From: Theionarchaea archaeon
Lineage (GTDB): Archaea > Methanobacteriota_B > Thermococci > Methanofastidiosales > SZ-28-30
Direction: 5' to 3'
NCBI GenBank assembly: GCA_018992685.1
Contig: JACVGT010000007.1
Location: 1-64,000, forward strand
DNA: 64,000 nucleotides
Shown: positions 2,780 through 37,095 of the stretch, one piece after another
Position numbering within the stretch: the first letter of the stretch is position 1
Layout of the letters: each line of letters opens with the position of its first letter
Program-made: the position numbers and the translations under genes
Notes under the pieces: model-generated
Seen by the model: the letters and a program-made list of their open reading frames with translations, nothing else
Told to the model about the DNA's origin: nothing
Databases searched by the model: none

Positions 2780-3409
2780 ATGACTGGAAAGGATGTGGCT
2801 TTCATCATGCTCTTCATGCTCTTTATCCTTTCAGTTATGGGAAATGCCTTCTTGCTGTATTATTCTATTGAGTCTGATCAGGATGACAGGACTTTAGAGC
2901 AGAAAATAGCTTCCCTGGAGGCTGAGAAGAACAACCTGTACTACCAGTACGATCGACAGAAGCATGAGCTGGAAGAGGAAAACGAGGATCTCCAGAAGGA
3001 AATCGATTCACTGAATTCCAGCGTCAGAGAACTTCAGAGAGAACTGGAGTCACAAACAGGAAATACCATTTCATACGAAGGACTGGTGGATTCTCTGAGA
3101 ATGCGAGTGTATGATCTGGAGGCAGAAGCCCAGGAACTGGAAAACGATCTGAATGAATGTAGGTCACACCAGGTGCACTCTGATTGTTCCTACTGGGCTG
3201 ACCCTTACTGTTCGTGCTATCCATGTCAGAGTTGTGGCACCTGCCATCATTCAGTGTCTGTTTCAAATGTTTCGGGCACATTCAAAGGAAACGCGTATGA
3301 CGCTATAATTTTCGTGTATCTCAATTACTATCCGTGCAATGCTTTGAGGATTTATGTGGATATTCTAGACATTGATACAATACAGATCGTGGGAGTGGAC
3401 TGGGATTAG
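2780..3409 (+). CDS. membrane-anchored coiled-coil protein with Cys/His-rich C-terminus
   Basis: 209 aa. N-terminal TM helix, a long heptad-like acidic coiled-coil stretch (EQKIASLEAEKNNL...), then CSYWADPYCSCYPCQSCGTCHH. Stop is 2 nt before the ABCE1 start. Confidence 0.5.
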   Translation: MTGKDVAFIMLFMLFILSVMGNAFLLYYSIESDQDDRTLEQKIASLEAEKNNLYYQYDRQKHELEEENEDLQKEIDSLNSSVRELQRELESQTGNTISYEGLVDSLRMRVYDLEAEAQELENDLNECRSHQVHSDCSYWADPYCSCYPCQSCGTCHHSVSVSNVSGTFKGNAYDAIIFVYLNYYPCNALRIYVDILDIDTIQIVGVDWD

Positions 3410-3410
3410 C

Positions 3411-5171
3411 ATGAGGATTGCAGTATTGGACCTAGACAAGTGCGAACCTAAAAAATGCCATTATATGTGTATCAAATTCTGTCCTGGAGTGAGAATGGGT
3501 GAAGAGACAATCATTATGGACGAAGATACGAAAAAACCCGTGATCAGCGAGGTGTTGTGTACAGGGTGTGGCATCTGCATTCACAAGTGTCCCTTTGATG
3601 CAATTACTATTGTGAATCTGCCTGAGGAACTGGACCAGCCAATTCACCAGTTTGGACCCAACAGTTTCAGACTGTACAGACTTCCCATTCCCAGGGAGAA
3701 CCAGGTGTTGGGGTTACTGGGTGCCAATGGGGTAGGCAAGACCACAGCAATCCGGATACTATGTGGAGAGATTACCCCTAACCTGGGCGACTATGGTGGG
3801 TCTGAAGGCAAGCCTGATCTGTCTCAGTATTTCAGAGGCTCAGAACTGCAAACGTATTTTGAACGGCTGGAATCCAAAGAACTGAAGGTTGTGATGAAAC
3901 CGCAGCAAATCACCAGGATACCTGCTGTGGTCAAAGGAACAGTAGAGGACGTCATTGGGAAAATAGATGAGAGAGGGGTTTCCAATACACTGTATGAAGC
4001 CCTTGGCATGCAGGAGGCTCTGTCCAAGGATATTTCAAGTCTATCTGGGGGAGAATTACAGAGACTCGCTTTGATTGTGGCCATGTGCAGGGAAGCAGAC
4101 GTGTACTATTTTGATGAGCCTTCCAGTTACCTGGATATTACCCAGAGGCTGAATGCTTCCAGGGCAATCAGGGACTTATCTGAATCTAAGAGTGTCATTG
4201 TCGTGGAGCATGACCTGGCTCTACTGGACTATCTATCTGACTATGTGCATGTATTGTATGGGCAGCCGGCGGTGTACGGTGTCTGTTCTGTTCCATACGG
4301 GGTGAGAGTGGGTATCAATTCATATCTGAGAGGGTATTTGAAAGAGGAGAATGTACGATTCAGAAAGGAAGAGATTATATTTGATACAGCAGGCAAGGTG
4401 TGGAAGGGTGAGGAGATCATGTTGGCATATCCTCCCCTGAGGAAGGAGTTTGAGGGGTTTGTGTTCCAAGGGAGTCAGGGTGAAATCCATATGGGAGAGG
4501 TTCTGGGTATTATTGGGCCAAATGCTATCGGGAAGTCCACATTTGTGAAGATATTGGCAGGCGTAATTGAGGGTGAGGAGAAGTTTGAGACAACATTGAA
4601 GATTTCGTACAAGCCGCAGTATTTGCAGTCTGACTATGAAGGGAGTGTTGAGATGGTGCTGATGCAGGTAAACAAAAAGCCCCTGAGTTCGTTACAGATG
4701 ACGGAGATTGTGAAACCACTGGGGTTGGAGCGATTATTGGAGAACGTCGTATCAGAGCTGAGTGGAGGGGAGCTACAGCGGGTGAGCATTGCGGTATGTC
4801 TGCTGCAGGAGGCCGATATGTATCTACTGGATGAACCTACTGCACATTTGGACGTGGAGCAGAGGCTGGCCATGGCAAAGGTTGTGAGGCGGTTTGTGGA
4901 GAAGAATGAGAAAGCTGCCATGGTGGTCGAACATGATATTGTGTCTGTAGACTATCTGTCTGATAGGTTGCTTGTGTTTTCAGGTGTGCCAGGTGTGGAG
5001 GGAGAGACTTCCGAACCTGTAGGGTTAAAGGATGGGATGAATGCGTTTCTGAAGAGTATTGGGGTGACCTTTAGAAGAGAGCCTGAATCAGGAAGACCGC
5101 GGGCTAACAAGGAAGGTTCGTTACTGGACAGGGAACAGAAATCCCGTGGGGAGTACTACTATAGCAGATAG
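3411..5171 (+). CDS. abce1: ABCE1 / RNase L inhibitor-type ribosome recycling ATPase
   Basis: N-terminal 2x[4Fe-4S] ferredoxin domain (CEPKKCHYMCIKFCP...CTGCGICIHKCP). Two ABC NBDs with Walker A (GANGVGKTT, GPNAIGKST) and LSGGELQR signatures. True start is MRIAVLDLDKC at 3411; the ORF track start at 3372 is an upstream extension. Confidence 0.95.
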   Translation: MRIAVLDLDKCEPKKCHYMCIKFCPGVRMGEETIIMDEDTKKPVISEVLCTGCGICIHKCPFDAITIVNLPEELDQPIHQFGPNSFRLYRLPIPRENQVLGLLGANGVGKTTAIRILCGEITPNLGDYGGSEGKPDLSQYFRGSELQTYFERLESKELKVVMKPQQITRIPAVVKGTVEDVIGKIDERGVSNTLYEALGMQEALSKDISSLSGGELQRLALIVAMCREADVYYFDEPSSYLDITQRLNASRAIRDLSESKSVIVVEHDLALLDYLSDYVHVLYGQPAVYGVCSVPYGVRVGINSYLRGYLKEENVRFRKEEIIFDTAGKVWKGEEIMLAYPPLRKEFEGFVFQGSQGEIHMGEVLGIIGPNAIGKSTFVKILAGVIEGEEKFETTLKISYKPQYLQSDYEGSVEMVLMQVNKKPLSSLQMTEIVKPLGLERLLENVVSELSGGELQRVSIAVCLLQEADMYLLDEPTAHLDVEQRLAMAKVVRRFVEKNEKAAMVVEHDIVSVDYLSDRLLVFSGVPGVEGETSEPVGLKDGMNAFLKSIGVTFRREPESGRPRANKEGSLLDREQKSRGEYYYSR

Positions 5172-5174
5172 ATG

Positions 5175-5280
5175 GCTTCAATACTTGTTGAAGTTAACGA
5201 TTATTGACGTTGTTAATTGATATCGGAAAGAGATATTCTTGAACAACAATAAATATTGACTTCGATCAGTGTTGAAGTTA
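5175..5280. repeat. ~110-bp module with two palindromic CTTCAA-N6-TTGAAGTTA motifs 84 bp apart (copy 1)
   Basis: tgttgaagtta at 5186-5196 and 5270-5280, each preceded by an inverted cttcaa/cttcga half-site. A second copy with the same 84-bp spacing lies at 7296-7401. Confidence 0.6.
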
Positions 5281-5334
5281 TGGAATTATTGTCGTGATAG
5301 CAATAAACAAAGAAATCAGAAAGAATAAACGATA

Positions 5335-6769
5335 TTATTCTTGATTAGAGGAGGAGCTGTGTTTAAGATAGTGTAGAGACCTCTTGGTGGATAGAGTGTA
5401 TGGGTGATCAGGTCCAAGGATTTCATGAAATGTCCGGTGAGCTTTCTCAAAACACTCCACCATCTTCCTGGAATCTCCCAACGACTTCCAGGCAGATCCC
5501 AGGTTGTTGAGTCTCGTGGCCACAGAAGGATGCTTTTCTCCATATACTTCCCTGTCAATAGCCAGGGCTTTCTCATAATACTCCACCGCTTCCTTCAAGA
5601 AACTCATATCCTCAAGTACCCATCCGAACTCAAGATAAAACTCTGAATAATGCTCATCTCTCATTTCCTGCGAAATACTTTTCACAATACGCAGTCCAGT
5701 GATCAGAGCTTCTTTGTATGCGAGATAATTCTTTAGGAAACGCAGCAGTTCCCCTCTTTTTCAACAGCCAGATCCTGCATCCCACACTGTGTCGCATGGC
5801 CAATCAATTCAGACGCAAATATGGGCTCATAATCCTCAGAAGATGATAGCAGTCTTTGGTAGAACTCTGTGGGGGCATGGTGGCACTTCCTTCGAACTTC
5901 CTTATCAAAACTGTTAGAAATCACATCCCGAAAAAGGGGAGTCACCCAATAGTACACATTCTTTCCTATATCTTCTTCCACAAGGCTCAACCTGACAGCC
6001 AACTTCAACTCCTGTTCCCATTCTCATAGGTCTCTGCAGACCAGGCAAATTCCCTCCCTTACAACAGGCAGACGAAACACAGATGATCTCCCCAATACCC
6101 TTTGAAATTCGTGGTACTGACTTTTCAATATCTCTTTCAAAATGAGTTTCTGAACGAATTCTTCCTGTCTTCCTTCAACTTTCTTCAATAGTGACTGTAC
6201 ATCCAAATCCTCTTCTACTTCCAGTAGCGTATTTATATCTTCCATCGGTCTGGGATTTCTCCGTCCAGCTTGAATCAATTTCTCTCTAGTCCCTGCGTCA
6301 GGATAATTCTCGATCTGGCTGTTTTCCAGGTAGATATACTGAATATTTCGCCGCTTTGGCCTTGCCTTCTGACCATTTTCAACCAAGGATATCAGAGGTG
6401 TCCCATCTGAAGAGAGGCGGAGTGCGTACCATTCCGAAGAACTATCCTTTGCCATTTCTTTCCTGGCAGTAGAGACGGCATCAACAACAGACTTTCCCCT
6501 GTTCAGTTCAACGTACACTTTATTAGCAGCTTCAGTGGCCCCATGATCTGAAATTGAACTAGCACCTAAAGACGCTAACTATGAGCATTAGCTTCCTGAA
6601 GAGCACGCTTCAATAGCTGTCTGTCGCCATTTATGAGGGAAAAAAGTTTCCCACCAACTTGCTCCAGCAGAGAGTCAACGTGATGGATTTTGAAATCCTC
6701 CCACATCTTTGAGATCCCAGAGATAGATTGGGATTCACACACATTCGTGTCTCTACTGCCGTCTGGCAT
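5335..6769 (-). pseudogene. degraded TPR-repeat gene (four ORF fragments: 6769-6575, 6518-6024, 6008-5733, 5685-5335)
   Basis: Four consecutive same-strand ORF fragments. 6024..6518 and 5733..6008 are in the same frame, separated by one in-frame TGA at 6024-6026. The other junctions are frameshifts. The last fragment carries TPR repeats (EKALAIDREVYGEKHPSVATRLNNLGSAW...). Confidence 0.4.
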
Positions 6770-7295
6770 TGTCTCAGTCAGGGATATTCTTTCCTCCTCT
6801 GATCAAGGATCACTCCAAAGCACACTACCATGTAACCCCTCTATTGCAGCAGAATAACCTCTCGTGAAGAGAGCTGTCAGCTGCGCGATTTAGCATTTCA
6901 ACATTTCTTGTTTGAGTCAGCAGTGATTTAAGGTTTTCGGAAATCATCTTTTTTTCTCTTTCTTGTGCCAAATAAATGCTAAATTAACAATAATCTGATA
7001 ATTGCCAATTCTCATTATAGATGATCACATCCTCATATTGAACTATAAAAGGAAATCTATGATCGGCAAATTTCCTCACCTTTAAAATCCCATTTTAAGG
7101 AGGGATTTTTCTCCTCCCGTTGAAGTCAGTAGTGACACAAGTGGAGTTCTCCGTAGTGGCACCTGACATCAAGCCCCCATACTCCATCTCTACGTTCTGA
7201 GAGTTCCCTTTGTGTTGTAAGCCTGATAAAGATTCATGTACTCTCTTGTTACTAGACCAGGTACTCACATACTTCTTTCTTTTCTTATCACATTG

Positions 7296-7401
7296 GTTTC
7301 AATATATGTTGAAGTTAAAGTTTACCAATAGCGGTTATCAATAGAGCATAGATATAATTTGAAACAGCAAAGAATAATAGCTTCAATTAATGTTGAAGTT
7401 A
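7296..7401. repeat. ~110-bp module with two palindromic TTCAA-N6-TTGAAGTTA motifs 84 bp apart (copy 2)
   Basis: tgttgaagtta at 7307-7317 and 7391-7401 (cttcaattaatgttgaag is a perfect palindrome). Same orientation and spacing as the copy at 5175-5280. Confidence 0.6.
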
Positions 7402-7882
7402 TTTAACATTGATTTATATTCTCTTATATTCAAAGAACAGGAATAAAAAGACAAAACCTTACTTTTACTCTACAACAGGAAATGAATAATTGCAGAAGGT
7501 CGTTGCTTGATGTCTCCTACCATTTCAGAATCTGACAGTCACATCGTATGGAAGATGATTCTCTCCAGCAGAGGCCTACCACTGTCATAATCTCCTTTGA
7601 GTAACATGGATTGATCTCACACTCTGGATCAGGTTGTCTCTTCGGGAGAGAAATGTGTGTGGCAAAATCTGCAGTTCCAAAGCCCTGCACGACCTCAGGG
7701 TGAGGCACCTGACAGGAAGACTACAGTGCAAGAAGAGAATTCGGGTCACTTTTCTGGTAAAAAATCCCCTGACACTCTTTGATAGAAGAAGTACTCCTTC
7801 CTTTTTGGAATGAGACAAATTCCTAAATAAGATTGCCTGATGAAACCGAAAAGTATAAAGTGTGAAGGGATGGAGTACCACC

Positions 7883-8545
7883 ATGTCTCAAGCATATGAA
7901 AAGAGAGACCTGGGAGTAACAGCTTCCAGAATGATAAAGGATGGGATGGTTGTTGGACTGGGCACAGGATCCACTGCAGCGGAATTCATCAAGGCTCTTG
8001 GGGAAAGAATCCGCACAGAGGGCATAACCGTGTACGGGGTTCCCACTTCGTACCAGGCCCACCTTCTGGCGGAGCAGCACAACATTCAGATAGTCACCTC
8101 TCAGACCATCGATATAGCGGTGGACGGAGCGGACCAGGTGGACCACCACGACTTCATTTCCAAGGGAGGCGGAGGTGCTCTCCTCAAGGAGAAACTGGTA
8201 GACTACAGGGCAGATCGGCTGATGATTCTGGCCGATTTTCACAAATTCGTGGAGAAGATAACAAAGGTTTTTGTCGAAGTTCATCCTCAGGCCATTCATT
8301 CAGTTCAGGAAGAGCTGTCACAGTACGGGACATGTGTCCTGCGTACTGTCCATGGACACCCTATTGAAGAGGGCGACCAGGTATTCATCACAGAATCAGG
8401 AAACGTGATCTTTGATGTAAAGACCACGGTTGAGGATCCTGTCAGGATGGAACGCGAGCTCAATGCAATCCACGGAGTTATGGAGAACGGGCTGTTCACC
8501 CGGACGTGTATAGTTATTCAAAGACCAAGAGGAATTCCCGGATAG
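7883..8545 (+). CDS. rpiA: ribose-5-phosphate isomerase A
   Basis: GLGTGSTA, VDGADQVD and KGGGGALLKEK motifs of RpiA. ATG at 7883 sits about 25 bp downstream of gtataaag, so the transcript is probably leaderless. The ORF track begins at GTG 7862. Confidence 0.85.
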   Translation: MSQAYEKRDLGVTASRMIKDGMVVGLGTGSTAAEFIKALGERIRTEGITVYGVPTSYQAHLLAEQHNIQIVTSQTIDIAVDGADQVDHHDFISKGGGGALLKEKLVDYRADRLMILADFHKFVEKITKVFVEVHPQAIHSVQEELSQYGTCVLRTVHGHPIEEGDQVFITESGNVIFDVKTTVEDPVRMERELNAIHGVMENGLFTRTCIVIQRPRGIPG

Positions 8546-8655: not shown

Positions 8656-9063
8656 TCAAGGTTGTTTTTCTCGGAAGACTTTCATCATTTGCTTTCTCAG
8701 TCTGCGAAACTCTGTTTCATCATTGGCTTCCTTTGCCACTCTCATGGCATCCAGAATCTCAATGAGAAAATCAATTGTCTCCAACGGTATGACGTTGCAG
8801 TAGACAGCCAGCAGAAATGTTGCCATTGCTCTGTCAATATTCTCTCGTGCCAATCGAATGTTCTCCGCAACTCCCTGCTTGGTGATGTTCCGCCTGGCGG
8901 CGATCTCTTCATAGGTAGTCTTCTCTCCCATGTCTTGGTTCCACACGTAGGTCACGTAGTCCTTTATTTGCCTCTTTGTGAAGTAACTCGTTTCAAGCAG
9001 TCTTTTGGCAAAAGAGTCACTGTTCAGCCACCTTTCTACATAGGTTAAAGTGAACTGCATCAT
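8656..9063 (-). CDS. HTH DNA-binding protein (sigma-70 region-4-like helix-turn-helix)
   Basis: 135 aa. TYEEIAARRNITKQGVAENIRLARENIDRA resembles the sigma-70 r4 / LuxR-type HTH. The overlapping plus-strand ORF 8506..9048 is low-complexity and was rejected. Confidence 0.55.
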   Translation of the reverse strand: MMQFTLTYVERWLNSDSFAKRLLETSYFTKRQIKDYVTYVWNQDMGEKTTYEEIAARRNITKQGVAENIRLARENIDRAMATFLLAVYCNVIPLETIDFLIEILDAMRVAKEANDETEFRRLRKQMMKVFREKQP

Positions 9064-16150: not shown

Positions 16151-19100
16151 CTATGAGGATCGCATGTAGATGAAGAGTAGTGCTGCTGCCACTGCTATGA
16201 GAACTCCTGCACCAGCTGCAACCATCAGCAGCGTCGTCCTCGTGTCCAGTCCTTCCAACAACCCTCGCCCAGTTGCTTGCCCCACAATTAGCTGGATCTG
16301 AGCTGAGGTTTCAAGCCCTGCCCTGTCTCTTGCCGTCACCGCAATTGTGTAGGTTCCCTCTGCAGTTGGGACTATCCATTGATAGGTCCAGGACTCAGTA
16401 CCCTGGGCTTCCTGTGGGGGTTCGCCATTCACAGCCACTTCTACAGTGGCTATTCCATTGAGATCATAGGCAGTTCCAGTGATCAGGAAGGAATCTCCTG
16501 TGACCGTGCTCCTGTCAGGAGTGGTGATGTATAGCTCAGGAGGTGTGGTGTCAATGATCACTGAGATTTCTTCAGAGTACCCGGCCTGGCCAAGGTCATC
16601 CCAGGCTCGTGCTTGCAAAGTGTATTCGCCATCCACAGGATACCAGGAGAAGGTCCATGTTCCCACAGGTCCCTCAACAGGCTGCCACGTGTCGCCTCCA
16701 TCGGTGGTGATCTCGATCCGTCTCACCACATCATTGTCAAGAGCAGTTCCCTTCAGTTCAAAACTGGTCTGAGACTCAATCTCCTTCAGCTGTAATCCTG
16801 GATCAAAAGCCACCACTGGAGGAGTGTTATCAACAACAATCATCACTGCATCCCCTACCAGCTCGGTGTTACCTTCATCATCGATGGCTCTGGATCGTAT
16901 GGTGTAGATTCCGTCTGATGGAAGTCTCCACCTGTAGGACCAGCTGACCGTTCCTGAGGCTGCACGCCAGGTTACCCCATTGTCAAAAGATACCTCCACT
17001 TTCGTCACCTCATTATTGTCAGAAGCCGTACCTCTAACGGTGATGTAGGTTCCTTTGTGCTTGGTGTTTGTCTGGGGATAGGTAATAATGGAATTGGGAG
17101 ATATTGTATCTGTGGGGGGCTGAGCGCTGGGTGGAGGCGGATGTGGAGGGAGGGGCATTGCAAGAACTGTAAAGGTCTTATTGGGCACACTGGAAGCAGG
17201 AGTGGAAGCACCAGAAGCGTCAACCTGCTTGATCCCCGGGCTGGATGGGGGCACTCTGAACTTGGCAGAAAAGTTCCCCGTGCTGTTCGCTTTCACTGTC
17301 CCTGCAGACGTTCCAGGCACTGTGGATCCCAAGGGAGTGAGGGAAACGGGGACCCCTGCAAAGGTCACCTTAATATTATCTTCATTGGCAGAGAATCCTG
17401 TCCCAGATACAGTCACCCAGATGCCTGAGGGACCAGCAATGGGGAAAATACTGATCCGCGGAGCAGGTGGAGGTGTGGGCGGTGCACAATCACCTACAGG
17501 GATCTCTGGTCCTGTGCCTCCCACAGAGGTGGTGTCAGTCCCATCATCTGCTGTTACGGTGTAGCTGTGGGTTCCTATGGGGAAGCCCCCAGAATACACG
17601 TAGAAATAGACTTTTCCGTTCTTGTAGTACGTGTCTCCAGGATCCAGTTCTGACATTGCAAAGGTGCCAATTCCCGTTATGGTAATGGTAAGAGAGACAG
17701 GATCATCATTATCTGTATCTGTGTAGGTGACCTGGTATACGAAAACGGTCGAGGTGTTGCCACATGCGGGAGTCACAGAGTAACTGGTGAGAGTTGCGGG
17801 TGTATTGGGATCTGCTGTTACCGTCGGCCCCGTACCTCCCACAGAGGTGGTATCAGTCCCATCATCTGCTGTTATGGTGTAGCTGTGGGTTCCTGGTGAC
17901 AGGCCAGCTGTGTAGTCATAGTAGTACAGCTTCCCATCTTTGTAGTACGTGTCTCCAGGATCCAGTTCTGACATTGCAAAGGTGCCAATTCCCGTTATAG
18001 TAATCGTCAGAGAAGCAGGATCATCATTATCAAAATCTGTGTAGGTGACAGTATATCTGAAGTTGGTGGTTTGAGTGCCTGAGGATGGAGTCACAGAGTA
18101 ACTGGTGAGAGTTGCGGGTGTATTGGGATCTGCTGTTACCGTCGGCCCCGTACCTCCCACAGAGGTGGTATCAGTTCCATCATCTGCTGTTATGGTGTAG
18201 CTGTGGGTTCCGGGTGACAGGCCAGCTGTGTAGTCATAGTAGTACAGCTTCCCATCTTTGTAGTACGTGTCTCCAGGATCCAGTTCTGACATTGCAAAGG
18301 TGCCAATTCCCGTTATAGTAATCGTCAGAGAAGCAGGATCATCATTATCAGCGTCTGTGTAGGTGACAGTATATCTGAAGTTGGTGGTTTGAGTGCCTGA
18401 GGACGGGGTAACTCCCAGAGAAAGGAGGGTGGGTGCAGTGTTTGTGCCAGAGACGGAAGGGCCAGTTGCACCGATGGATACGGGGTTCGTTCCATCACTG
18501 GCCGCTATTGTATAACTATGAGTCCCCGCCCCCAGACCTGAATATTCGTAATAGTACTGATTACCATCCACATAATTGTAATCATCTGGATTGCTTTCTA
18601 TCATGTTAAAGGTGCCTACACCTGTAATGGTAAGACTAACATACGTGGGTGCATTGTTGTCCTGATCTGTGTAGGTGACAGTATACCTGAAAATAGTAGT
18701 GGACGTTCCTGAAGAGGGAGACACCTGATAGTTGACGAGTTGAGGAGGGTTGTCAGGAGGATCTTCTACCACAGTGATGGTCACAGAACTGGTGTCCCGT
18801 GCTCCAAAATCGTCTTCAGCCACTACCTCAAGGGTGTATGTACCCTCAGGAGTTTCTTTGGATATCACAGTTTGTACAGTGTATACGGAGTCTCCTGCAA
18901 CCTTGTCAGGAATTACTCCATCATCTTTCATTGCGGTCATAGAGCCATTAAAAGGGGAAAAATCAATGAGGACTGTCTCAATATTGTCATCGCTGTCTTC
19001 AACATGGGCTGACAGTATGAGGGTGGTGGTTCCATTGTTTGGTACGAATTGAGGAACTGCACTGACATCAACAATAACAGGCGGACTGTTTGGTTCAAAA

Positions 19101-19936
19101 CTGAGAAGACCACTCTCCAAGGTGTCTGATTTTCCATCGGGATTAACAATAGTGACATCATACCTGCCGGGGTTCAAAGCCGGAATGGTCACGGTCAGAG
19201 CTGTGTCTGAAATGAACGAAACACTGCAGTGGATCGCCCCCACCAGAACCTGTGGAGTTTCCACAAAGTGATTGCCTGAAATCTCCGCTGTGTACTCCTT
19301 GTCAGACTCAATTTCATCTGGCTGAATAGATTCTATGTGGGGAGGAACTGATTCTACGAAAACTGTAATCTCTGCACTTTCTATGCTATTCCCTGCCATA
19401 TCCTGGGCCCGGCAGCATAATACAACCTTCCCCTGAGGAGGGGAAGTGATTGATAAGCGCCAGGTGGAAGTGCCTGATGCCCGGTACCACGTTCCGTTAA
19501 CACGCACCTCCACCTGGTTGACACCAGTTTCTCCGTCTGATGCTGTCCCTTCAATGTTGAGAGTTCCACTGATACGGGCTCCATCACTTGGTGATGCAAT
19601 ATTCAGGAGAGGAGCCTCGCGATCGCACACTGCGCTTGCTGGGAGGGAGGGAGGACTCTCAGTGTCACCTGAAAGGGCAGTCACCCAGTAGTAGTAAACG
19701 TTACCATTTGTGTCTGGATAATCGGTATATGCAGTACCTTTGATTCTTGCTATTTCCTCTGCTACCTGGAATGATTCCTTTTCTGCTCTGTATAAAACAA
19801 AGGAATCCCCAGATCCGTCCCATTTCAGCAGGATAGCACCTTCAGGGCCAGATCGCGCTTCCAGCACGGTGGGGATTTCTGTTTTTGTGGCAAGTGATAA
19901 CATAATACAGAAGAGGATGAGAAGGAATCGATTCAC
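16151..19936 (-). CDS. giant cell-surface protein with signal peptide, FN3/Ig-like/TIG-like domains, four ~106-aa tandem repeats and C-terminal TM anchor
   Basis: 1261 aa. N-terminal signal peptide. Repeated TVTYTD.DNDDP..LTITITG.GTFAM modules. Pro-rich linkers (PPTPPPAP, PPHPPPPSAQPP). C-terminal hydrophobic helix LLMVAAGAGVLIAVAAALLF. Confidence 0.85.
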   Translation of the reverse strand: MNRFLLILFCIMLSLATKTEIPTVLEARSGPEGAILLKWDGSGDSFVLYRAEKESFQVAEEIARIKGTAYTDYPDTNGNVYYYWVTALSGDTESPPSLPASAVCDREAPLLNIASPSDGARISGTLNIEGTASDGETGVNQVEVRVNGTWYRASGTSTWRLSITSPPQGKVVLCCRAQDMAGNSIESAEITVFVESVPPHIESIQPDEIESDKEYTAEISGNHFVETPQVLVGAIHCSVSFISDTALTVTIPALNPGRYDVTIVNPDGKSDTLESGLLSFEPNSPPVIVDVSAVPQFVPNNGTTTLILSAHVEDSDDNIETVLIDFSPFNGSMTAMKDDGVIPDKVAGDSVYTVQTVISKETPEGTYTLEVVAEDDFGARDTSSVTITVVEDPPDNPPQLVNYQVSPSSGTSTTIFRYTVTYTDQDNNAPTYVSLTITGVGTFNMIESNPDDYNYVDGNQYYYEYSGLGAGTHSYTIAASDGTNPVSIGATGPSVSGTNTAPTLLSLGVTPSSGTQTTNFRYTVTYTDADNDDPASLTITITGIGTFAMSELDPGDTYYKDGKLYYYDYTAGLSPGTHSYTITADDGTDTTSVGGTGPTVTADPNTPATLTSYSVTPSSGTQTTNFRYTVTYTDFDNDDPASLTITITGIGTFAMSELDPGDTYYKDGKLYYYDYTAGLSPGTHSYTITADDGTDTTSVGGTGPTVTADPNTPATLTSYSVTPACGNTSTVFVYQVTYTDTDNDDPVSLTITITGIGTFAMSELDPGDTYYKNGKVYFYVYSGGFPIGTHSYTVTADDGTDTTSVGGTGPEIPVGDCAPPTPPPAPRISIFPIAGPSGIWVTVSGTGFSANEDNIKVTFAGVPVSLTPLGSTVPGTSAGTVKANSTGNFSAKFRVPPSSPGIKQVDASGASTPASSVPNKTFTVLAMPLPPHPPPPSAQPPTDTISPNSIITYPQTNTKHKGTYITVRGTASDNNEVTKVEVSFDNGVTWRAASGTVSWSYRWRLPSDGIYTIRSRAIDDEGNTELVGDAVMIVVDNTPPVVAFDPGLQLKEIESQTSFELKGTALDNDVVRRIEITTDGGDTWQPVEGPVGTWTFSWYPVDGEYTLQARAWDDLGQAGYSEEISVIIDTTPPELYITTPDRSTVTGDSFLITGTAYDLNGIATVEVAVNGEPPQEAQGTESWTYQWIVPTAEGTYTIAVTARDRAGLETSAQIQLIVGQATGRGLLEGLDTRTTLLMVAAGAGVLIAVAAALLFIYMRSS
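17440..18720. repeat. intragenic tandem repeat array, period 318 bp, about 4 copies; the two central copies (~17776-18411) are ~98% identical
   Basis: Nested ORFs 17794..18000 and 18112..18318 translate to peptides differing at 2 of 68 residues. The DNA repeats verbatim with 318-bp offset. Confidence 0.8.
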
Positions 19937-20694: not shown

Positions 20695-21155
20695 GGTTTA
20701 CCCTGTAAAAGCTCATTTATAAGCTTTTCGCTCGCCATTTAGGGACTGATAAACGTTTATCGCAATTTTAGCTTATAATTTCGTTCTGATCCGTTACTGA
20801 AAGTTCCTGAACGTTTCTGAACGTTTATAGTGTCATGAAAAGCGACTAGTTACAGAATACATTCAGGGTACAAGGGTAAAGAAATCGTGAGTTCAGCCCC
20901 CCCGATTCTGGGATATGAAGTGACTTTCTCAGGACTATCGAATCACTTCTAACTGTTGCTAATCGTTTCTTTGCAGTCTGATATGATCAATGTCTTCTCT
21001 GAGGAGTCTATTTTACCATAATTGCCCTCTTGACACTTTTTTCCGTTTTCCTGGTGATACCAGAACTCTCACGGGTTCGTGTCAGAGTGACCAGAGAGGA
21101 ATCTAAGAATGACCATGAGAAATCTATTTATGTAATCTATCAACAAGAACATTTC

Positions 21156-22202
21156 ATGAAGGCTGCTCTCACTACGTTGGATCTCCAGAAATATCTTGAC
21201 CAGAAGAAGAAAACCATGAGGATCTTTGCTCATTTCTGCTCATTTACGCCGGAAGAGGTTTTGCATGCAGCAGGTATCCTGCCAGTACGCATCTTTGGCT
21301 CGAATATCATAGAAAAAGCCAGCGCCCACTTGCAGTCCTACTGTTGCTCATATGCAAAGAGGGTCCTGGAAGCAGGACTGACCAACCCTTTTGATGGTTC
21401 TGTGTTCGTTCACAGTTGCGACACCATGCAGAGACTTTCTGACATCTGGGGATATTCGATTGATGATGGCTTCCATGAGACTCTGGTCCTTCCTGTGGCC
21501 GTTGATAAGGGGATTGAATACCTCACGAAGGAATTGAACCGGTTCACAAGGGGATTGGAGGTCTATGCGGGAGAAATATCTGATACTGCTCTGAAAGAAA
21601 GCATCTCTGTCTATAATGATAACAGGAACCTACTTCAGGAGTTATATGAAAAAAGAAAAGGGGGCCATATCCTTGCCGTGGTAGTAGACAAGGTGATGAA
21701 AGCCAGTATGAGCATGCTGAAGCAGGAACATACCGTGTTGTTGGAGGAATTCCTGGAGGAGGTGGAACTGGGAGAGTATTCTCGGCCTCGTCTCATCCTC
21801 TCAGGAAGTGTTGTTGAAGACCCTAGCATACTGGAGATTATTGAAGAATATGGGTTAATCTGCTATGATGATCTCTGCACAGGTTCTCGATATTTATCCC
21901 TGGCAGAGGAACAGTCACTACGAGGAATTGCACGACGATACCAGGGCATGTGGTGCCCCTGCAGAACTGCTTCTGCTCCCAGAGGACAGTACCTCGTTGA
22001 GAAGGCAGGAGAATACGATGCAGACGGAGTCATACTTCTTCTTCACAAGTTCTGCGAGCCACATCTTTTTGAAGCAGTCTCAATCAGGAACAGTCTGAAA
22101 GAGCACGGCTACCCGTGTCTACAACTGGAGCTCGAAGACCAGACCTCACCAGAGCAAGTACGGACCAGGATCCAGGCGTTCTGCGAAATGCTGGAGGGAT
22201 AG
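21156..22202 (+). CDS. 2-hydroxyacyl-CoA dehydratase family protein (HgdA/HgdB-like subunit 1)
   Basis: Conserved Cys ligands typical of the HgdAB/BcrBC/BadDE family. ATG 21156 is about 25 bp downstream of tatttatg. Confidence 0.75.
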   Translation: MKAALTTLDLQKYLDQKKKTMRIFAHFCSFTPEEVLHAAGILPVRIFGSNIIEKASAHLQSYCCSYAKRVLEAGLTNPFDGSVFVHSCDTMQRLSDIWGYSIDDGFHETLVLPVAVDKGIEYLTKELNRFTRGLEVYAGEISDTALKESISVYNDNRNLLQELYEKRKGGHILAVVVDKVMKASMSMLKQEHTVLLEEFLEEVELGEYSRPRLILSGSVVEDPSILEIIEEYGLICYDDLCTGSRYLSLAEEQSLRGIARRYQGMWCPCRTASAPRGQYLVEKAGEYDADGVILLLHKFCEPHLFEAVSIRNSLKEHGYPCLQLELEDQTSPEQVRTRIQAFCEMLEG

Positions 22203-22205
22203 CCA

Positions 22206-23396
22206 ATGAAAAAACTCAATTCCTATGAAAATCTTAAAAAACTCGTTGGGAGCCATTACATGCAGGCCAAAACTGCCCATTTTTTCAATCAGAAGATTGG
22301 CTGGGTCTCAAGTGGGGCTCCTGTGGAAGTGCTTCGTCCTTTTGACATCGTCACTGTCTACCCGGAAAACCATGCTTCAATATGTGGAGCAGCAAAACAG
22401 GGTTCTGAACTCTGTGAAGCAGCTGAGGCTGAAGGCTTTTCCCGTGATCTCTGCAGCTATTTCAGGTGCGATAGGGGATCCACCCTCCTGGGCACGAGCC
22501 CCATCGGGGGATTACCTCGCCCAGATTTCCTCTACGGGTGCAATAATATTTGTGGAACTATATTGAAATGGTATGAAATTGCATCCAGGCACTTTGACGT
22601 TCCCTTTCTCTTTGTGGATACCCCATTTGTTCACACCACCATGACTGACCATGCTGTAGAGTATGTTGCAGCTCAGCTAGAGGAGATTGTACCGTATCTA
22701 GAATCATTGACGGGAAGAGAATTCGATGAGCAGAAATTCACGGAGACACTGGAACTTTCCAAAACATGTGTGGAATTGTGGAAAAAGACTTTGCAGTTCG
22801 GTGCACATAAACCCTCTCCTCTCACGTGCTTTGACGCTTTTACTCAGATGGCCGCTATTGTGTCTCTGAGGGGAACGCAGGAAGCAGTGACCCATTACAA
22901 GACTTTAAATGAGGAACTGGAATCACGGATTCAGAAAGGGATTGCTGCAGTGGACAACGAGAAAATTCGGCTTTTATGGGACAATATTCCTGTGTGGTAT
23001 GCCATGAGGGGACTGTCTGAATTGTTTGAGAATCATCAAGCCTGCCTGGTGGCAGATACCTATACGAACGCCTGGGCTTCAGCTGCATTGGATACGGGTA
23101 ATCCCATGGAGAGTCTTGCTCGAAACTATCTGGAAATCTACCTGAACATCTCCATGGATCTTATGCTCGAACGGATTATCGCCCTCATTCACCAGTTTGA
23201 TGTGGACGGTATGGTAATGCACAGCAACAGATCCTGCAAACCATACTCTCTGGGACAGTATGATCTTGCCCGCTGCATAAAAGAGGAAACAGGTATACCT
23301 GTGGTGATAATTGAGGCAGACATGGTGGATTCACGCACATATGCGGAGGAACAAGCGCGAACGAGGATAGAAGCGTTTCTGGAATCTCTTGGGTGA
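22206..23396 (+). CDS. 2-hydroxyacyl-CoA dehydratase family protein (subunit 2)
   Basis: Paralogous to the upstream gene. GGAGGG SD 9 bp upstream. Begins 4 nt after the subunit-1 stop. Confidence 0.75.
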   Translation: MKKLNSYENLKKLVGSHYMQAKTAHFFNQKIGWVSSGAPVEVLRPFDIVTVYPENHASICGAAKQGSELCEAAEAEGFSRDLCSYFRCDRGSTLLGTSPIGGLPRPDFLYGCNNICGTILKWYEIASRHFDVPFLFVDTPFVHTTMTDHAVEYVAAQLEEIVPYLESLTGREFDEQKFTETLELSKTCVELWKKTLQFGAHKPSPLTCFDAFTQMAAIVSLRGTQEAVTHYKTLNEELESRIQKGIAAVDNEKIRLLWDNIPVWYAMRGLSELFENHQACLVADTYTNAWASAALDTGNPMESLARNYLEIYLNISMDLMLERIIALIHQFDVDGMVMHSNRSCKPYSLGQYDLARCIKEETGIPVVIIEADMVDSRTYAEEQARTRIEAFLESLG

Positions 23397-23400
23397 GTAG

Positions 23401-24189
23401 ATGTGGTGTGGTATTGATATTGGGGCAGCTACTGCCAAGCTGGTGCTGCTTGAGAACACAGTAGTTGCGGGCATCATTATCCCCAGCGGATTCGACACGG
23501 TGAAGACCGCTGAAGAGCTGGTGGAGCACGGGTTGGAGAAAGCAGGTATTCTCCGGAAAGATATCCAATGCATAGTGGCCACAGGTTATGGGAGAAGGAT
23601 GGTGCCCATGGCTGACAGGACAGTAACTGAGATCACCTGTCATGCAAGAGGTGCTCATTACCTAGACAATGAGGTAAGGACCATTATTGACATTGGGGGG
23701 CAGGATTCCAAAGGGATTTCCCTTGATGCTACGGGGAAGGTGACGGATTTTGTGATGAATGACAAGTGTGCAGCTGGAACAGGGAGGTTTCTGGAGGTCA
23801 TGGCTCGCGCTCTTGAGGTGGAGCTGGGTGAATTGGGAACCCTCTCTTTGAAATGCGAGGAGAAAGTTGCGATATCCTCTACCTGTACTGTTTTTGCAGA
23901 GTCTGAAGTTATCTCTTACAAGAATCAGGGAAAGAAGAAAGAAGACATCATTGCAGGGGTTCATGAAGCCATTGCGTCACGGATCTATGCCATGGTGCAT
24001 CAGATACCCATACAGGAGAAGATCATGGTAACAGGTGGAGTTGCCTTAAACAGAGGAATGGTTCGTGCTCTAGAACGAAAGATGGAGAAAGAAGTGGAGA
24101 TACCGGGAGATCCGCAGATTGTGGGTGCACTGGGTGCAGCACTGCTGGGGAGAGAATCACAGTCCATCAAGAAGGGTTCTTTTTCATAA
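23401..24189 (+). CDS. CoA-substrate-specific enzyme activase (HgdC/BcrAD/BadFG ATPase family)
   Basis: Acetate/sugar-kinase fold ATPase with N-terminal GIDIGAATAK and the Cys pair of the [4Fe-4S]-bridging helix. Confidence 0.8.
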   Translation: MWCGIDIGAATAKLVLLENTVVAGIIIPSGFDTVKTAEELVEHGLEKAGILRKDIQCIVATGYGRRMVPMADRTVTEITCHARGAHYLDNEVRTIIDIGGQDSKGISLDATGKVTDFVMNDKCAAGTGRFLEVMARALEVELGELGTLSLKCEEKVAISSTCTVFAESEVISYKNQGKKKEDIIAGVHEAIASRIYAMVHQIPIQEKIMVTGGVALNRGMVRALERKMEKEVEIPGDPQIVGALGAALLGRESQSIKKGSFS

Positions 24190-33744: not shown

Positions 33745-34290
33745 ATGTCCAAGAAAGGAGGAAAGAAAGTGCTTGGAATTGTAGGAAGTCCACATCTTGA
33801 AGGAAATACTGATAGGCTTGTAGCAGCAGTCCTGAAAGGCGCAGAGGAAGCCGGCGCTGAAACGGAAAAAATCATACTCAATACGCTGGAGATTTCTCCC
33901 TGCCAGGCCTGCAACACCTGTCACAAGACTGGTCGGTGTGTGCAGGAAGACGACATGCTCACAGTTCTGGACAAGATGGAGCGGAGTCATGTGTGGGTCT
34001 TGGGTACTCCGGTCTACTGGTGGGGACCTTCTGCACAGTTCAAAGCCTTTCTGGATCGATGGTATGGTGTTGATCGGGCAGTTTTCAAAGATAAGAGTGC
34101 TGTCATCGTAATTACTCTGGGGGGCAGTGAAAGTTATGCAAAGTACACCGTGGGGATCTTGACAAGTGTTCTTCCATATCTTAATATTGAACACATTGGA
34201 ACAGTGCTTGCTCCCGGGGGCATACCTGGTACCCCCCACATACTGGAAAAGGCTTTTCACGTCGGGCTAGAATCCATTGAGAGGCGGTGA
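33745..34290 (+). CDS. flavodoxin-like / iron-sulfur flavoprotein (NADPH-dependent FMN reductase family)
   Basis: KVLGIVGSPHLEGNT flavodoxin-like N-terminus. CQACNTC cysteine cluster typical of Isf. SD AGGTGA 5 bp upstream. Confidence 0.75.
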   Translation: MSKKGGKKVLGIVGSPHLEGNTDRLVAAVLKGAEEAGAETEKIILNTLEISPCQACNTCHKTGRCVQEDDMLTVLDKMERSHVWVLGTPVYWWGPSAQFKAFLDRWYGVDRAVFKDKSAVIVITLGGSESYAKYTVGILTSVLPYLNIEHIGTVLAPGGIPGTPHILEKAFHVGLESIERR

Positions 34291-34306
34291 TCACGTGCTC
34301 TGCAGA

Positions 34307-35467
34307 ATGCTGGGAAGTACTGGAATAAGAACATCTATTCTGGGATTTGGATGCATGCGGCTGCCAACTGTGGCCTGGGATAAGGCAGAAATAGCCGAAA
34401 AGGAAGCAATTAAGATTATCAGAAAAGGAATTGACAATGGGATAACCTATGTTGATACTGCAGAGCCCTACCACATGGGTGAGAGTGAAATAGTACTGGG
34501 CAAGGCACTCAAGGACGGATACAGGGATAGAATCACTCTAGCTACCAAGTCTCCAGTATGGAAAGACGACTTTGATAGACCCGATCAGTTTGAGAACTAT
34601 TTGAACCTTCAGCTCAAACGGTTGGGCGTGGATTATGTTGACATATACCTTTTTCATTCTCTCAACCAGAACTTATGGAAGGAAAAAGTTCTGGAGTTCG
34701 ATCTCATTGAAAGAGCAGAAAAAGCAAGGGATGAAGGAAAGATCAGGCATATAGGGTTCTCTTTCCATGACAGTCCTGAGGTCTTGAAAGAGATCATTGA
34801 TTCCAATGCATTCAAAGTCATGCTGGTTCAATACAACATCCTCAATCCTGTAAATGAAGAAATGATCTCCTATGCTGCGGAAAAGGGTCTCGGAGTGGCA
34901 ATCATGGGTTCAGTTGCTGGCGGCCGCCTGGCGGGTGAACCTCCAGCTGAAATGCGTCAATGGCTGAGCACAGGCAGGAAGAATTTTGTGGATCTGGCAT
35001 TGAAATTCGTGTGGACCCACCCTAATGTCTCGGTCGCTCTCTCTGGCATGGGTTCTGAACAGATGGTTGATGACAACCTGGGCATTGCTTCGGGTAGCTC
35101 GTGTACGTTGAGTCCAAAGGAGACGGAAATTGCTCAAGACATCAGACAGAAATTCAAAGAACTGACGAACAATATCTGCACAACCTGCGAATACTGCATA
35201 CCCTGCCCAAATGAAGTCAATATTCCCTTTATTTTTACAGCACTCATGTATTACCAGGTCTACAGCCAGAAAGAAAGAGCTCGCCTGTATTACAAGAACA
35301 TAGGGAATGTTGAGGCGTACTATCCTCCGGGAAAAGATGCTACCGGTTGTGTTGAATGTGGAGAATGTGAAAAGAAGTGCCCTCAGAAGATTTCGATTAT
35401 AGAACAGCTGAAGAAAGCACATCAGATTCTCAGCGAAGATGAAATCGAACGGAGAGATGAAAAATGA
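34307..35467 (+). CDS. aldo/keto reductase with ferredoxin-like Cys-rich C-terminus (paralog 1)
   Basis: AKR N-terminus (GFGCMRLP, D..Y..K..H catalytic pattern). C-terminal CTTCEYCIPCP...CVECGECEKKCP. Confidence 0.85.
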   Translation: MLGSTGIRTSILGFGCMRLPTVAWDKAEIAEKEAIKIIRKGIDNGITYVDTAEPYHMGESEIVLGKALKDGYRDRITLATKSPVWKDDFDRPDQFENYLNLQLKRLGVDYVDIYLFHSLNQNLWKEKVLEFDLIERAEKARDEGKIRHIGFSFHDSPEVLKEIIDSNAFKVMLVQYNILNPVNEEMISYAAEKGLGVAIMGSVAGGRLAGEPPAEMRQWLSTGRKNFVDLALKFVWTHPNVSVALSGMGSEQMVDDNLGIASGSSCTLSPKETEIAQDIRQKFKELTNNICTTCEYCIPCPNEVNIPFIFTALMYYQVYSQKERARLYYKNIGNVEAYYPPGKDATGCVECGECEKKCPQKISIIEQLKKAHQILSEDEIERRDEK

Positions 35468-36516
35468 AAACCATTGTCTTGGGTAAGACTGGACTGGAAG
35501 TGTCCAGAGTCGGGATAGGTGGCATTCCTCTGAACCGTCCCTCCGAAGAGAAGGCAATCAAGGTGGTGCAGCGTGCTCTGGACCTGGGAGTCAATTTCAT
35601 CGACACTGCCAATGGATATTCAGAGAGTGAGAATCGCATCGGAAAGGCAATATCAGGACGCCGAGAAGAAGTAATCATAGCAACCAAGACAGGAAGACGG
35701 GATAAGGACGCAGCACTACAGGAACTGGAAGTCAGCCTAGAGAGGCTTCGCACTGATTATATTGATATCTGGCAGTTTCACGGTATCAACACTGCTGCGA
35801 TTCTGGAAAAAGTGTTAGAACCGGGTGGAGCAATGGAAGGAGCACAGGTTGCGTTGAGGAAAGGTAAAGTCAGGCATATTGGATTCAGCAGCCACAATCT
35901 GGAGATCGCTATGAAAGCGGTAAGTTCTGGTCAGTTTGAGACGGTTCAATTCCCCCTCAACTTCGTCTCCGATGAAGCTGCACCAAGTTTGGTCCCGCTG
36001 GCGAGGCAGGAAGACATGGGATTCATTGCAATGAAGCCATTTGCTGGAGGAAGGATACGAGATGCTGATCTTGCCATCAAATATCTGCTCCAATTTGACA
36101 CTGTTGTTCCAGATCCGGGTGTTCAGAAAGTCGAGGAAATTGAAGAAATTGTTGGAATTGTGGACAGTGAGTCATGGGAAGTGTCATCTCAGGACTTAGA
36201 AAGAATAGAAAGCATTCGTGAGAAAGTAGGGAAAAGATTCTGCCGGCAGTGCACCTACTGTATGCCCTGTCCTCAGGAGGTCTTCATATGTGGTGTCCTG
36301 TACTTGCCGATTTTGTGGGAGCTGTGGCCGTCTGATTGGTTTTTTAACTGGGACTACGTTAACCATTCGGTGAAAAGTGCGAAGAACTGCATAAGATGTG
36401 GCGAATGCGAAGAAAAATGCCCGTACTTATTGCCTATCAGAGAAATGATCGAGGAGAGTGTCAATTTCTTCGAACAGAAGGCAAGAGAGTATAATAGGAA
36501 GGAGATTAAGAACTAG
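35464..36516 (+). CDS. aldo/keto reductase with ferredoxin-like Cys-rich C-terminus (paralog 2)
   Basis: Overlaps the previous stop by 4 nt (ATGA). AKR core plus C-terminal CRQCTYCMPCP...CIRCGECEEKCP. Confidence 0.85.
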   Translation: MKTIVLGKTGLEVSRVGIGGIPLNRPSEEKAIKVVQRALDLGVNFIDTANGYSESENRIGKAISGRREEVIIATKTGRRDKDAALQELEVSLERLRTDYIDIWQFHGINTAAILEKVLEPGGAMEGAQVALRKGKVRHIGFSSHNLEIAMKAVSSGQFETVQFPLNFVSDEAAPSLVPLARQEDMGFIAMKPFAGGRIRDADLAIKYLLQFDTVVPDPGVQKVEEIEEIVGIVDSESWEVSSQDLERIESIREKVGKRFCRQCTYCMPCPQEVFICGVLYLPILWELWPSDWFFNWDYVNHSVKSAKNCIRCGECEEKCPYLLPIREMIEESVNFFEQKAREYNRKEIKN

Positions 36517-36535
36517 CACATAAGGAGGTTTGTAA

Positions 36536-37081
36536 ATGAACATGATTGAGAGAAAAGTCAGGTACTTCCCGAATTATGGAGCACAGAATACAGATCAAGT
36601 CATTGAAATTGTAAAGAATCGAGCAACAGAGGGTGATGTGAGGACAGTCGTGGTTGCCAGCACTTCTGGAGAAACGGGTGTCAAATTTTTAAGAGAACTC
36701 GGAGACATTGCAGCTGTTGTCGTCGTCTCACACGAGAAAATGAATCCCACCCACAAACAGCGCATTACTGAACTGGGTGGTATCGCACTGGACACGACTC
36801 ATCTACCTCTGCACACGCCAGGAATGGATCCTATCAGAGAGGCGTTTCGAACTCTTGGCCAAGGATTTAAAGTCGCAGTCGAAGTTATTCTTATTGCTTC
36901 CGACAAAGGAGAAGTTGCCGTGTACGAAGACGTTATTGGGGTAGGCGGAACTGGCCGAGGGGAAGACACTGCAATACTTGCCAGAGCAACCCCCACCCAA
37001 GATGCATTTGGCAGTGATGAGACGAAGAAACTGGAAATCAGGGAAATCCTTGCCATGCCACTGAAGAAGAAATGGTGGTAG
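36536..37081 (+). CDS. hypothetical protein
   Basis: 181 aa. Strong SD AAGGAGGT 8 bp upstream. Located between AKR paralogs 2 and 3. Confidence 0.5.
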   Translation: MNMIERKVRYFPNYGAQNTDQVIEIVKNRATEGDVRTVVVASTSGETGVKFLRELGDIAAVVVVSHEKMNPTHKQRITELGGIALDTTHLPLHTPGMDPIREAFRTLGQGFKVAVEVILIASDKGEVAVYEDVIGVGGTGRGEDTAILARATPTQDAFGSDETKKLEIREILAMPLKKKWW

Positions 37082-37095
37082 GAGAGGGTGCTGCA

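Follow-up and report, generated by a model that had tools for sequence, protein, structure and literature searches.

The locus described here lies in a 64-kb window of the genome of a Theionarchaea archaeon (positions 1 to 64,000 of contig JACVGT010000007.1, assembly GCA_018992685.1; all coordinates are those of the + strand), a member of the sister group of the Thermococcales (PMC6972569). It is anchored on the left by ABCE1 (3411..5171, + strand) and on the right by rpiA (7883..8545, + strand), and between these genes are two copies of a short palindromic module in the same orientation: module 1 (m1; 5172..5283, +), a secondary, faster-evolving copy that starts 4 bp past the stop codon of ABCE1, where the neighbouring genes end convergently, and module 2 (m2; 7294..7421, +), a conserved copy of ‘chromosomal’ type whose end is 481 bp from rpiA. 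The two copies are ~68% identical and bracket a fragmented TPR gene (5335..6971, − strand), the cargo in this genome, as an earlier note on this DNA had described. Its open reading frame (ORF) pieces lie in different frames; the 3′-most fragment (5335-5685) matches Pfam TPR_12 and TPR_10 (TPR_12 E=1.5e-15), while a homologue search with the middle fragment returned only the fragment itself. The module is a real, unannotated and lineage-wide element with a rigid three-part architecture, and its function is putative.

Each module contains two palindromic sites, a and b. Read in the window sequence, these are CTTCAA-TACTTG-TTGAAGTTA (site 1a, 5176-5196, +), CTTCGA-TCAGTG-TTGAAGTTA (site 1b, 5260-5280, +, 84 bp past site 1a), TTTCAA-TATATG-TTGAAGTTA (site 2a, 7297-7317, +) and CTTCAA-TTAATG-TTGAAGTTA (the core of site 2b, 7381-7401, +). 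All four are on the same (+) strand, and the distance from TTGAAG to TTGAAG is 84 bp in both pairs. The sequence TTGAAGTTA occurs five times in the 64 kb versus 0.68 expected, a count that none of 100 shuffles reached, and the 21-mer CTTCAATNNNTGTTGAAGTTA with up to 3 mismatches recovers just the four sites versus 0.12 expected. Similarly, the general pattern CTTCAAT-N3-TGTTGAAGTTA has four matches in the window and none outside the two pairs. The four palindromic sites, their arrangement as two same-orientation pairs and the 84-bp spacing, all proposed in the earlier note, are thus borne out. A further ‘half-site’ that it placed at 7119 was ruled out as chance, as it has 2 mismatches to the 11-mer, matches of that kind number 33 in the window versus 21 expected, and no counterpart is kept in the relative L080.

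An almost gap-free alignment of 18 modules resolves the ~115-bp element into site a, a central palindrome at +35 and site b at +84, with an a–b spacing of 84 bp in 16 of the 18 and 83 bp in the other two. In site a, an invariant TTCAA is followed by 6 free bp and then by TGTTGAAGTTA, a frame that is retained in all five m1 copies. The central palindrome, CGGTTATCA in m2 of the window (7332-7340, +), has a fixed +35 offset from site a and reads TGATTATCA in most modules, with variants in L174 and L209 (TGGTTACCA), L207 m2 (TGATAATCA) and L189 and L191 (TGATTAATA). Next is a conserved A-rich, BRE/TATA-like block (CAACAAAGAATAATA / CAGCAAAGAATAATAG, 7365-7380, +; CAAYAAAGRATAATA across modules), the 3′ part of which is the outer left arm of site b. 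In full, site 2b (7376-7403, +) reads AATAGCTTCAA-TTAATG-TTGAAGTTATT, comprising two 11-bp inverted arms and a 6-bp spacer; the consensus of site b is AATARCTTCAA-N6-TTGAAGTTATT, and its arms form a perfect palindrome in L163. A TATA-like sequence (GATTTATAT, GATTTATRT; 7411-7419, +) lies ~10 bp past site 2b and is present in m2-type copies only. Across the 18 modules, free variation in the 4-6-bp spacers contrasts with invariance of the arms. The interior had previously been described as only AT-rich and not conserved, which holds for m1 versus m2 within this genome but not across species, where the third palindrome (TGATTATCA) and the block CAACAAAGAATAATA are conserved.

Several smaller features accompany the modules. 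The TGATTATCA centre has been lost from the m1 copies of the clade formed by the window genome, L080 and L195/L197 (the TPR clade), and in the same clade a TCTCWTGTTACTAGAC block is kept in the upstream flank of m2 (7243-7262). A C/T-rich tract with ACACCC is present 24-37 nt before site a in L174, L177, L179, L195 and L163, and a run of T5-T6 occurs ~25 nt past site b in L174, L201, L198 and L207.

The related loci came from a DNA-pattern scan of genomes (L080), a paired-site scan of metagenomes (L163, L174, L177 and L179) and look-ups of rpiA homologues (L189-L216). A single-site scan of genome contigs was uninformative on copy number in the source genome; the matches listed were mostly chance occurrences in AT-rich bacteria, with only L080 relevant among them. 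A covariance model (R1) built from nine modules, which matches the window at 5165-5300 (m1, 115 bits) and 7286-7421 (m2, 126 bits), identified the module upstream of rpiA, in the ABCE1–rpiA position, in 14 lineages, with scores of 93-143 bits in most lineages and 50-58 bits in the AT-rich L189/L191 clade. No convincing module was found off this locus with R1 in the ~0.41 Mb of partly redundant Theionarchaea DNA that formed the search space. The module is always in the orientation of the flanking genes, and L212, where synteny is broken, is the sole rpiA locus without it.

Conservation of the module stands out against its surroundings. The rpiA proteins of ten lineages share 65-88% pairwise identity, and a five-lineage alignment of the DNA upstream of rpiA shows conservation in just the ~118-bp module and the promoter of rpiA, the rest of the intergenic DNA being unalignable. 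The module is situated mid-way in a ~1 kb non-coding region with a GC content as low as 17-24% in L189 and L191. No small conserved ORF or peptide was found between m2 and rpiA, the residual similarity in the three closest genomes being spread over several frames. In the 14 lineages the module is syntenic and under purifying selection. The conserved promoter-like element of rpiA, ACCGAAAAGTATAAA (7845-7859, +), lies ~24 bp before the ATG and is invariant in the five lineages, suggesting that the rpiA transcript may be leaderless and independent of the module.

Two modules in direct orientation are present in five genomes from three clades, and the DNA between them differs from clade to clade. 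The TPR clade has the decaying TPR gene, which is broken likewise in L195/L197 and has decayed further in L080; L174 has 6.6 kb of cargo comprising a radical-SAM/SPASM gene and three ORFs without a Pfam match; and L207/L208 have 2.1 kb with an HxlR-like gene and a small ORF. In four lineages (L163, L209, L189/190 and L191/192), the ABCE1–rpiA interval holds one module and is free of genes. In L179/L193/L194, L198 and L201, the left-hand side of m2 is occupied by other genes (ADI, nitroreductase, GNAT and hydrolase genes in one; MazE/PIN and a 633-aa ORF in another) and the contigs stop short of ABCE1. Scans of the cargo ORFs against Pfam, PHROGs and NCBIfam found no integrase or recombinase.

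The two copies have also evolved differently. Within the TPR clade, m1 copies are 65-81% identical versus 78-85% for m2 copies, and the m1 orthologues of L080 and L195, 65-81% identical to window m1, are 57-70% identical to any m2. The m1 arms are nevertheless still kept, with partial decay in the L080 orthologue of site 1b (CTTCAG...TTGAAGCCA). The m1 of L174 is m2-like and has the spacers CACC and TAGC in common with its own m2, while those of the TPR clade group together on their own. It follows that the duplication happened more than once or that sequence passes between the copies.

The contigs of several independent assemblies begin inside or just upstream of m2 (L196 at positions 1-41, L215 at position 22 and L214 at position 245), which suggests that assemblies tend to break here, as they would at a repeated or population-variable spot; in L177 the locus is internal to its contig rather than at a contig end. 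Look-ups for an insert-free member of the TPR clade gave only contigs that start just upstream of m2. A 200-bp block left of m2 in L174, L177 and L201 was considered as a second element and rejected, as it is the 3′ end of a membrane-protein gene.

These patterns point to a host element that probably binds protein in a fixed geometry and is placed at the edge of a gene-turnover spot, and the module has the look of a host site for protein docking or recombination, not of a mobile element. Tentatively, we favour the reading that it may be a host-maintained, protein-bound recombination locus of the res/dif-like, multi-subsite kind, the duplication of which would bracket inserted DNA. In such a system, sites a and b would be bound through their invariant TTCAA/TTGAAGTTA arms by a dimeric recombinase, and assembly of a defined synaptic complex would depend on the rigid 84-bp spacing. 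A circle bearing its own copy of the module may have undergone recombination with the copy in the chromosome, site a at the left edge being the probable point of crossover; this would leave an element-type m1 beside ABCE1, the chromosomal m2 beside rpiA and the cargo between direct repeats. Divergence of the spacers of the two copies would freeze the insert in place, and the cargo of the window, the TPR gene, would since have decayed. With a crossover at the left edge, m2 would be expected to be of ancestral type, and m1 divergent, over their whole lengths, as is seen. In addition, none of the cargo revealed an integrase, which agrees with elements that rely on a recombinase of the host, and the linkage of a variable insert to the module argues for recombination rather than simple operator control.

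A number of results weigh against recombination at the module. No recombinase was found among the 30 ORFs scanned in the window or within 10 kb in any fetched locus, and scans of viral, plasmid and phage sequences yielded no excision product, circular junction or free module-bearing element. The best-conserved feature of archaeal dif, TAA-N6-8-TTA (PMC11840125), is absent from site b, which matches the arm of P. abyssi dif (the full site being ATTGGATATAA-TCGGCC-TTATATCTAAA) at only 5/11 positions. Its inner arms are CAA...TTG, and the sole TAA-N6-TTA reading takes variable spacer as an arm; an alternative dif-like register, ATAA-CTTCAA-TTAT, was dismissed, its right ‘arm’ being variable spacer. 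The position of m1 is also difficult to accommodate. It lies 4-40 bp from ABCE1 in two-module genomes, whereas the lone module lies 400-590 bp from ABCE1, so that simple integration into the module needs extra assumptions; the placement of m1 requires the single-module spacers to be relics of older inserts, and a model search of those spacers with filters off found no m1 relic (nothing >7 bits). There is no hybrid attL/attR pattern either, as m2 is of ancestral type and TPR-clade m1 divergent over their whole lengths. A 393-aa membrane-protein ORF left of m2 in L174 (7351-8532) survives as a frameshifted relic in the equivalent place in L201 (5400-5720); this gene is common to both despite their different cargo, implying that some of the cargo turnover occurs inside the islet without the module. 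Finally, the claim of a single locus rests on partial data, namely the ~0.41 Mb searched.

Less probable is a more specific role in which the module would be the Theionarchaea locus for resolution of chromosome dimers or multimers and, at the same time, a landing pad for integrase-less elements, an archaeal counterpart of the bacterial islands of integrative mobile elements exploiting Xer (IMEX). The core in site b, the second core-like site and the central accessory palindrome would then make up a topological filter like those of res and cer, and this filter would provide selectivity for resolution although the organism has no FtsK. Cortez et al. (PMC2958812) and the review PMC8371274 both ask what, without FtsK, biases Xer-type recombination in archaea towards resolution.

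The earlier note had also offered a paired-operator architecture, and a looped operator pair is a possible, though on balance improbable, alternative to recombination. A dimeric or tetrameric transcription factor would bind sites a and b on the same helix face (84 bp being 8 turns), loop the intervening DNA and control a promoter at the CAAAGAATAATA block or at GATTTATRT past site b. The anatomy agrees with this proposal, with invariant arms, variable spacers and strict phasing (84 bp in 16/18 modules), as do the TATA-like conserved elements inside m2-type modules and 10 bp downstream of them, and small helix-turn-helix genes are syntenic nearby (Tfx/YlxM-like at 8656-9063; EarA-family upstream of ABCE1 in other loci). 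What is lacking is a target: the module has no conserved gene or promoter associated with it, and nothing downstream is conserved, as DNA or peptide, until the leaderless-type promoter of rpiA 440 bp away, while the rpiA gene of L212 has no module at all. The m1 copies, moreover, lie between convergent gene ends and have no TATA-like element, yet keep both sites. It had been argued from the convergent ends that the first copy is no simple promoter, which is correct. A single orphan site as the entire regulon would also leave the duplication around variable cargo unexplained, and the variable insert itself points to recombination. The likeness to LacI O1-O3 and GalR OE-OI (two like palindromes an integral number of helical turns apart in AT-rich DNA, with a possible promoter) is offset by the absence of an identifiable regulated gene at the module, by the copy between convergent ends and by the duplication around variable DNA.

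Slightly less likely again is a structured RNA gene of ~120 nt on the + strand with three hairpins, serving as an integration target in the way that tRNA genes do, which would explain the second copy. RNAalifold predicts three hairpins at -15.5 kcal/mol on the + strand versus -10.4 on the − strand; arm mismatches in hairpins A and B are mostly wobble-compatible G.T on the + strand (39 G.T versus 11 A.C cells), although these counts are not phylogenetically independent. The T5-T6 runs ~25 nt past hairpin B in four lineages, the C/U-rich tract upstream and the constant orientation relative to the flanking genes would also suit a transcribed RNA. However, paired cells amount to 86.6% versus 86.3% in column shuffles, with 213/500 shuffles at least as high, and since there is no excess of covariation over these shuffles it is the arm sequence that is conserved and not merely the pairing. 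L191 shows parallel G to C changes in both right arms, which break pairs, and there is no conserved promoter upstream. The window contained no tRNA gene and, at gathering score, no Rfam family, and even at E up to 10 the Rfam matches to the module were at chance level and gave no family. An RNA gene is thus possible but is not the best-supported reading.

We consider it improbable that the module is an element of chromosome architecture or replication, such as a docking site, in a long AT-rich spacer, for an SMC roadblock or nucleoid protein, or a pair of origin-like initiator boxes on either side of an AT-rich stretch. Its conservation at a single locus, mid-way in ~1 kb of non-coding DNA that falls to 17-24% GC in L189 and L191, and its independence of transcription of the neighbouring genes are compatible with such a role, and in T. 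kodakarensis a domain boundary is made by the intergenic DNA that surrounds dif and not by dif itself (PMC11840125). Counting against it, the loci contain no cdc6/orc1 gene, the GC skew has no turning point at 5-7 kb of the window and the duplication is left unexplained. Archaeal origins, as generally described, have inverted origin recognition boxes (ORBs) around an AT-rich duplex-unwinding element, usually beside orc1/cdc6, while the boxes of the module are in direct orientation.

It is very unlikely that the modules are attC sites of the integron type, that is, a cluster of attC sites lacking integron-integrases (CALIN), in which the two sites would be ‘simple sites’ with inversely oriented cores around a variable centre and the cargo a cassette. 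The attC core consensus is RYYYAAC / GTTRRRY, and CTTCAAY and RTTGAAG each fit it at 6/7 positions; the module length of 105 bp is within the attC range and the copies have the same orientation around the cargo. In window m1, taken as single-stranded DNA, site a also pairs with site b to give one long imperfect hairpin (-14.3 kcal/mol, z = -3.6), unlike in m2, where local hairpins form (z = -2.35). Nevertheless, there is no IntI, array or attI, there are at most two copies per locus, and the cargo (2-7 kb, with several genes on both strands) is not cassette-like. In genomes without an insert, moreover, selection has kept a single copy; conservation does not extend to the AAC/GTT triplets, many copies having AAT or ATT instead, and no extrahelical-base asymmetry is visible. 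Integrons and CALINs do occur in Archaea (PMC9668308; see also PMC8946536 for the integron comparison), and the former paper makes no mention of Theionarchaea.

Least likely of all is a miniature inverted-repeat transposable element (MITE) with several genomic copies, a reading put forward in the earlier note that is now close to refuted, since copy number, target-site duplication, empty sites and conservation pattern all fail. The module is short, AT-rich and palindromic at its ends, has two copies 2.1 kb apart and, in window m1, is overall an imperfect long palindrome. R1 matches are confined to this locus in the DNA searched, where the module is orthologous and conserved in 14 lineages. Target-site duplications were looked for at the module ends and no consistent flanking repeat was found, ATGG flanking m1 only and nothing comparable being present at m2 or at L080 m1. 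The insert-free loci (L163, L209, L189 and L191) still hold one module, the opposite of what is expected for a MITE; the interior is alike between species but differs between the two copies of one genome; and no transposase was found. No module-like sequence was detected in scans of IMG/VR or in BLAST searches of PLSDB and phage records: the first IMG/VR scan gave 39 loci, all of them coding tandem repeats without the left arm, and two further viral scans gave look-alikes only. One AT-rich viral contig from IMG/VR (L206, 3293-3333) has a perfect palindrome, AACAATAACTTCAAT-AAAA-ATTGAAGTTATTGTT, which is a single hairpin without a module; it was rejected as a chance likeness to site b.

In the surroundings of the locus, an ORF of 135 aa at 8656-9063 (− strand) encodes a sigma-r4/Tfx/YlxM-like helix-turn-helix protein (NCBIfam YlxM, E=0.0014; no Pfam family) and accompanies rpiA in every Theionarchaea locus, including the module-less L212. 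On the left, a 209-aa ORF (2780-3409, +) with a coiled coil and a Cys-rich C-terminus extends to within 2 bp of the ABCE1 start and is kept in all loci, with no family assignment. A gene for an EarA-family winged-helix protein lies 1.5-2 kb upstream of ABCE1 in several lineages (L189-L192 at ~5230-5700, L207 at 1416-1760 and L163 at 8095-8475) and is absent from the clade of the window. Elsewhere in the window are two clusters of ordinary metabolic appearance, one with two HGD-D dehydratase subunits and a BcrAD/BadFG-type activator (21030-24189) and the other with three adjacent aldo/keto-reductase paralogues, two of which have a C-terminal Fer4 (34277-38310), as well as a 1261-aa ORF (16151-19936, −).

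If the favoured reading of the module as a recombination locus is true, the locus would be a concrete, clonable substrate for recombinant Theionarchaea recombinases, and would be the first candidate, in this uncultured group, for islands that depend on a host recombinase. If it is instead an RNA gene or an operator complex, it would still be a lineage-wide, unannotated functional element. Its position is, in addition, a hot spot of gene turnover at which assemblies break repeatedly.

Among characterised systems, multi-subsite recombination loci come nearest to the module in working principle, and it shows similarities to two families of recombination sites. The res sites of Tn3/gamma-delta are ~120 bp long and comprise three dimer-binding inverted-repeat subsites, the spacing and orientation of which are kept while the sequence drifts, and they are active only in direct repeat (10.1101/2021.12.07.471667). 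The module likewise has a length of ~115-120 bp, three dyads (0, +35 and +84) with different internal spacers and a spacing that is kept in 18 modules, and its copies are in direct repeat, as are the res copies that flank deletable DNA. Centre-to-centre distances are 30.5 and 53.5 bp in the module and ~34 and 53 bp in res. The Tn4430 IRS and the plasmid cer/psi sites are grouped with res as similar multi-subsite sites. In contrast to res, the module has no resolvase gene beside it (no recombinase domain was found among the neighbouring or cargo genes of the loci), does not lie in a transposon and belongs to an archaeal host, and the half-sites of its central subsite are unlike those of sites a and b.

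The second family is that of the Xer/dif sites, the core of which consists of 11-bp inverted arms and a 6-bp spacer (PMC2958812, PMC8371274). In archaea, dif is found in large intergenic regions, where it is flanked by conserved AT-rich DNA and by inverted repeats, and in some cases there is a second, poorer copy nearby (PMC2958812, PMC11840125). The module differs in having a second core-like site 84 bp away and in showing no similarity to the dif of P. abyssi or Sulfolobus. It resembles archaeal dif in the 11-bp inverted arms and 6-bp spacer of site b, in its position at one conserved locus in a large AT-rich intergenic region, with flanks that are conserved and inverted repeats beside it, and in its occasional second, poorer copy, and it resembles bacterial dif with its IMEX islands in that the DNA inserted at the module has no integrase of its own.

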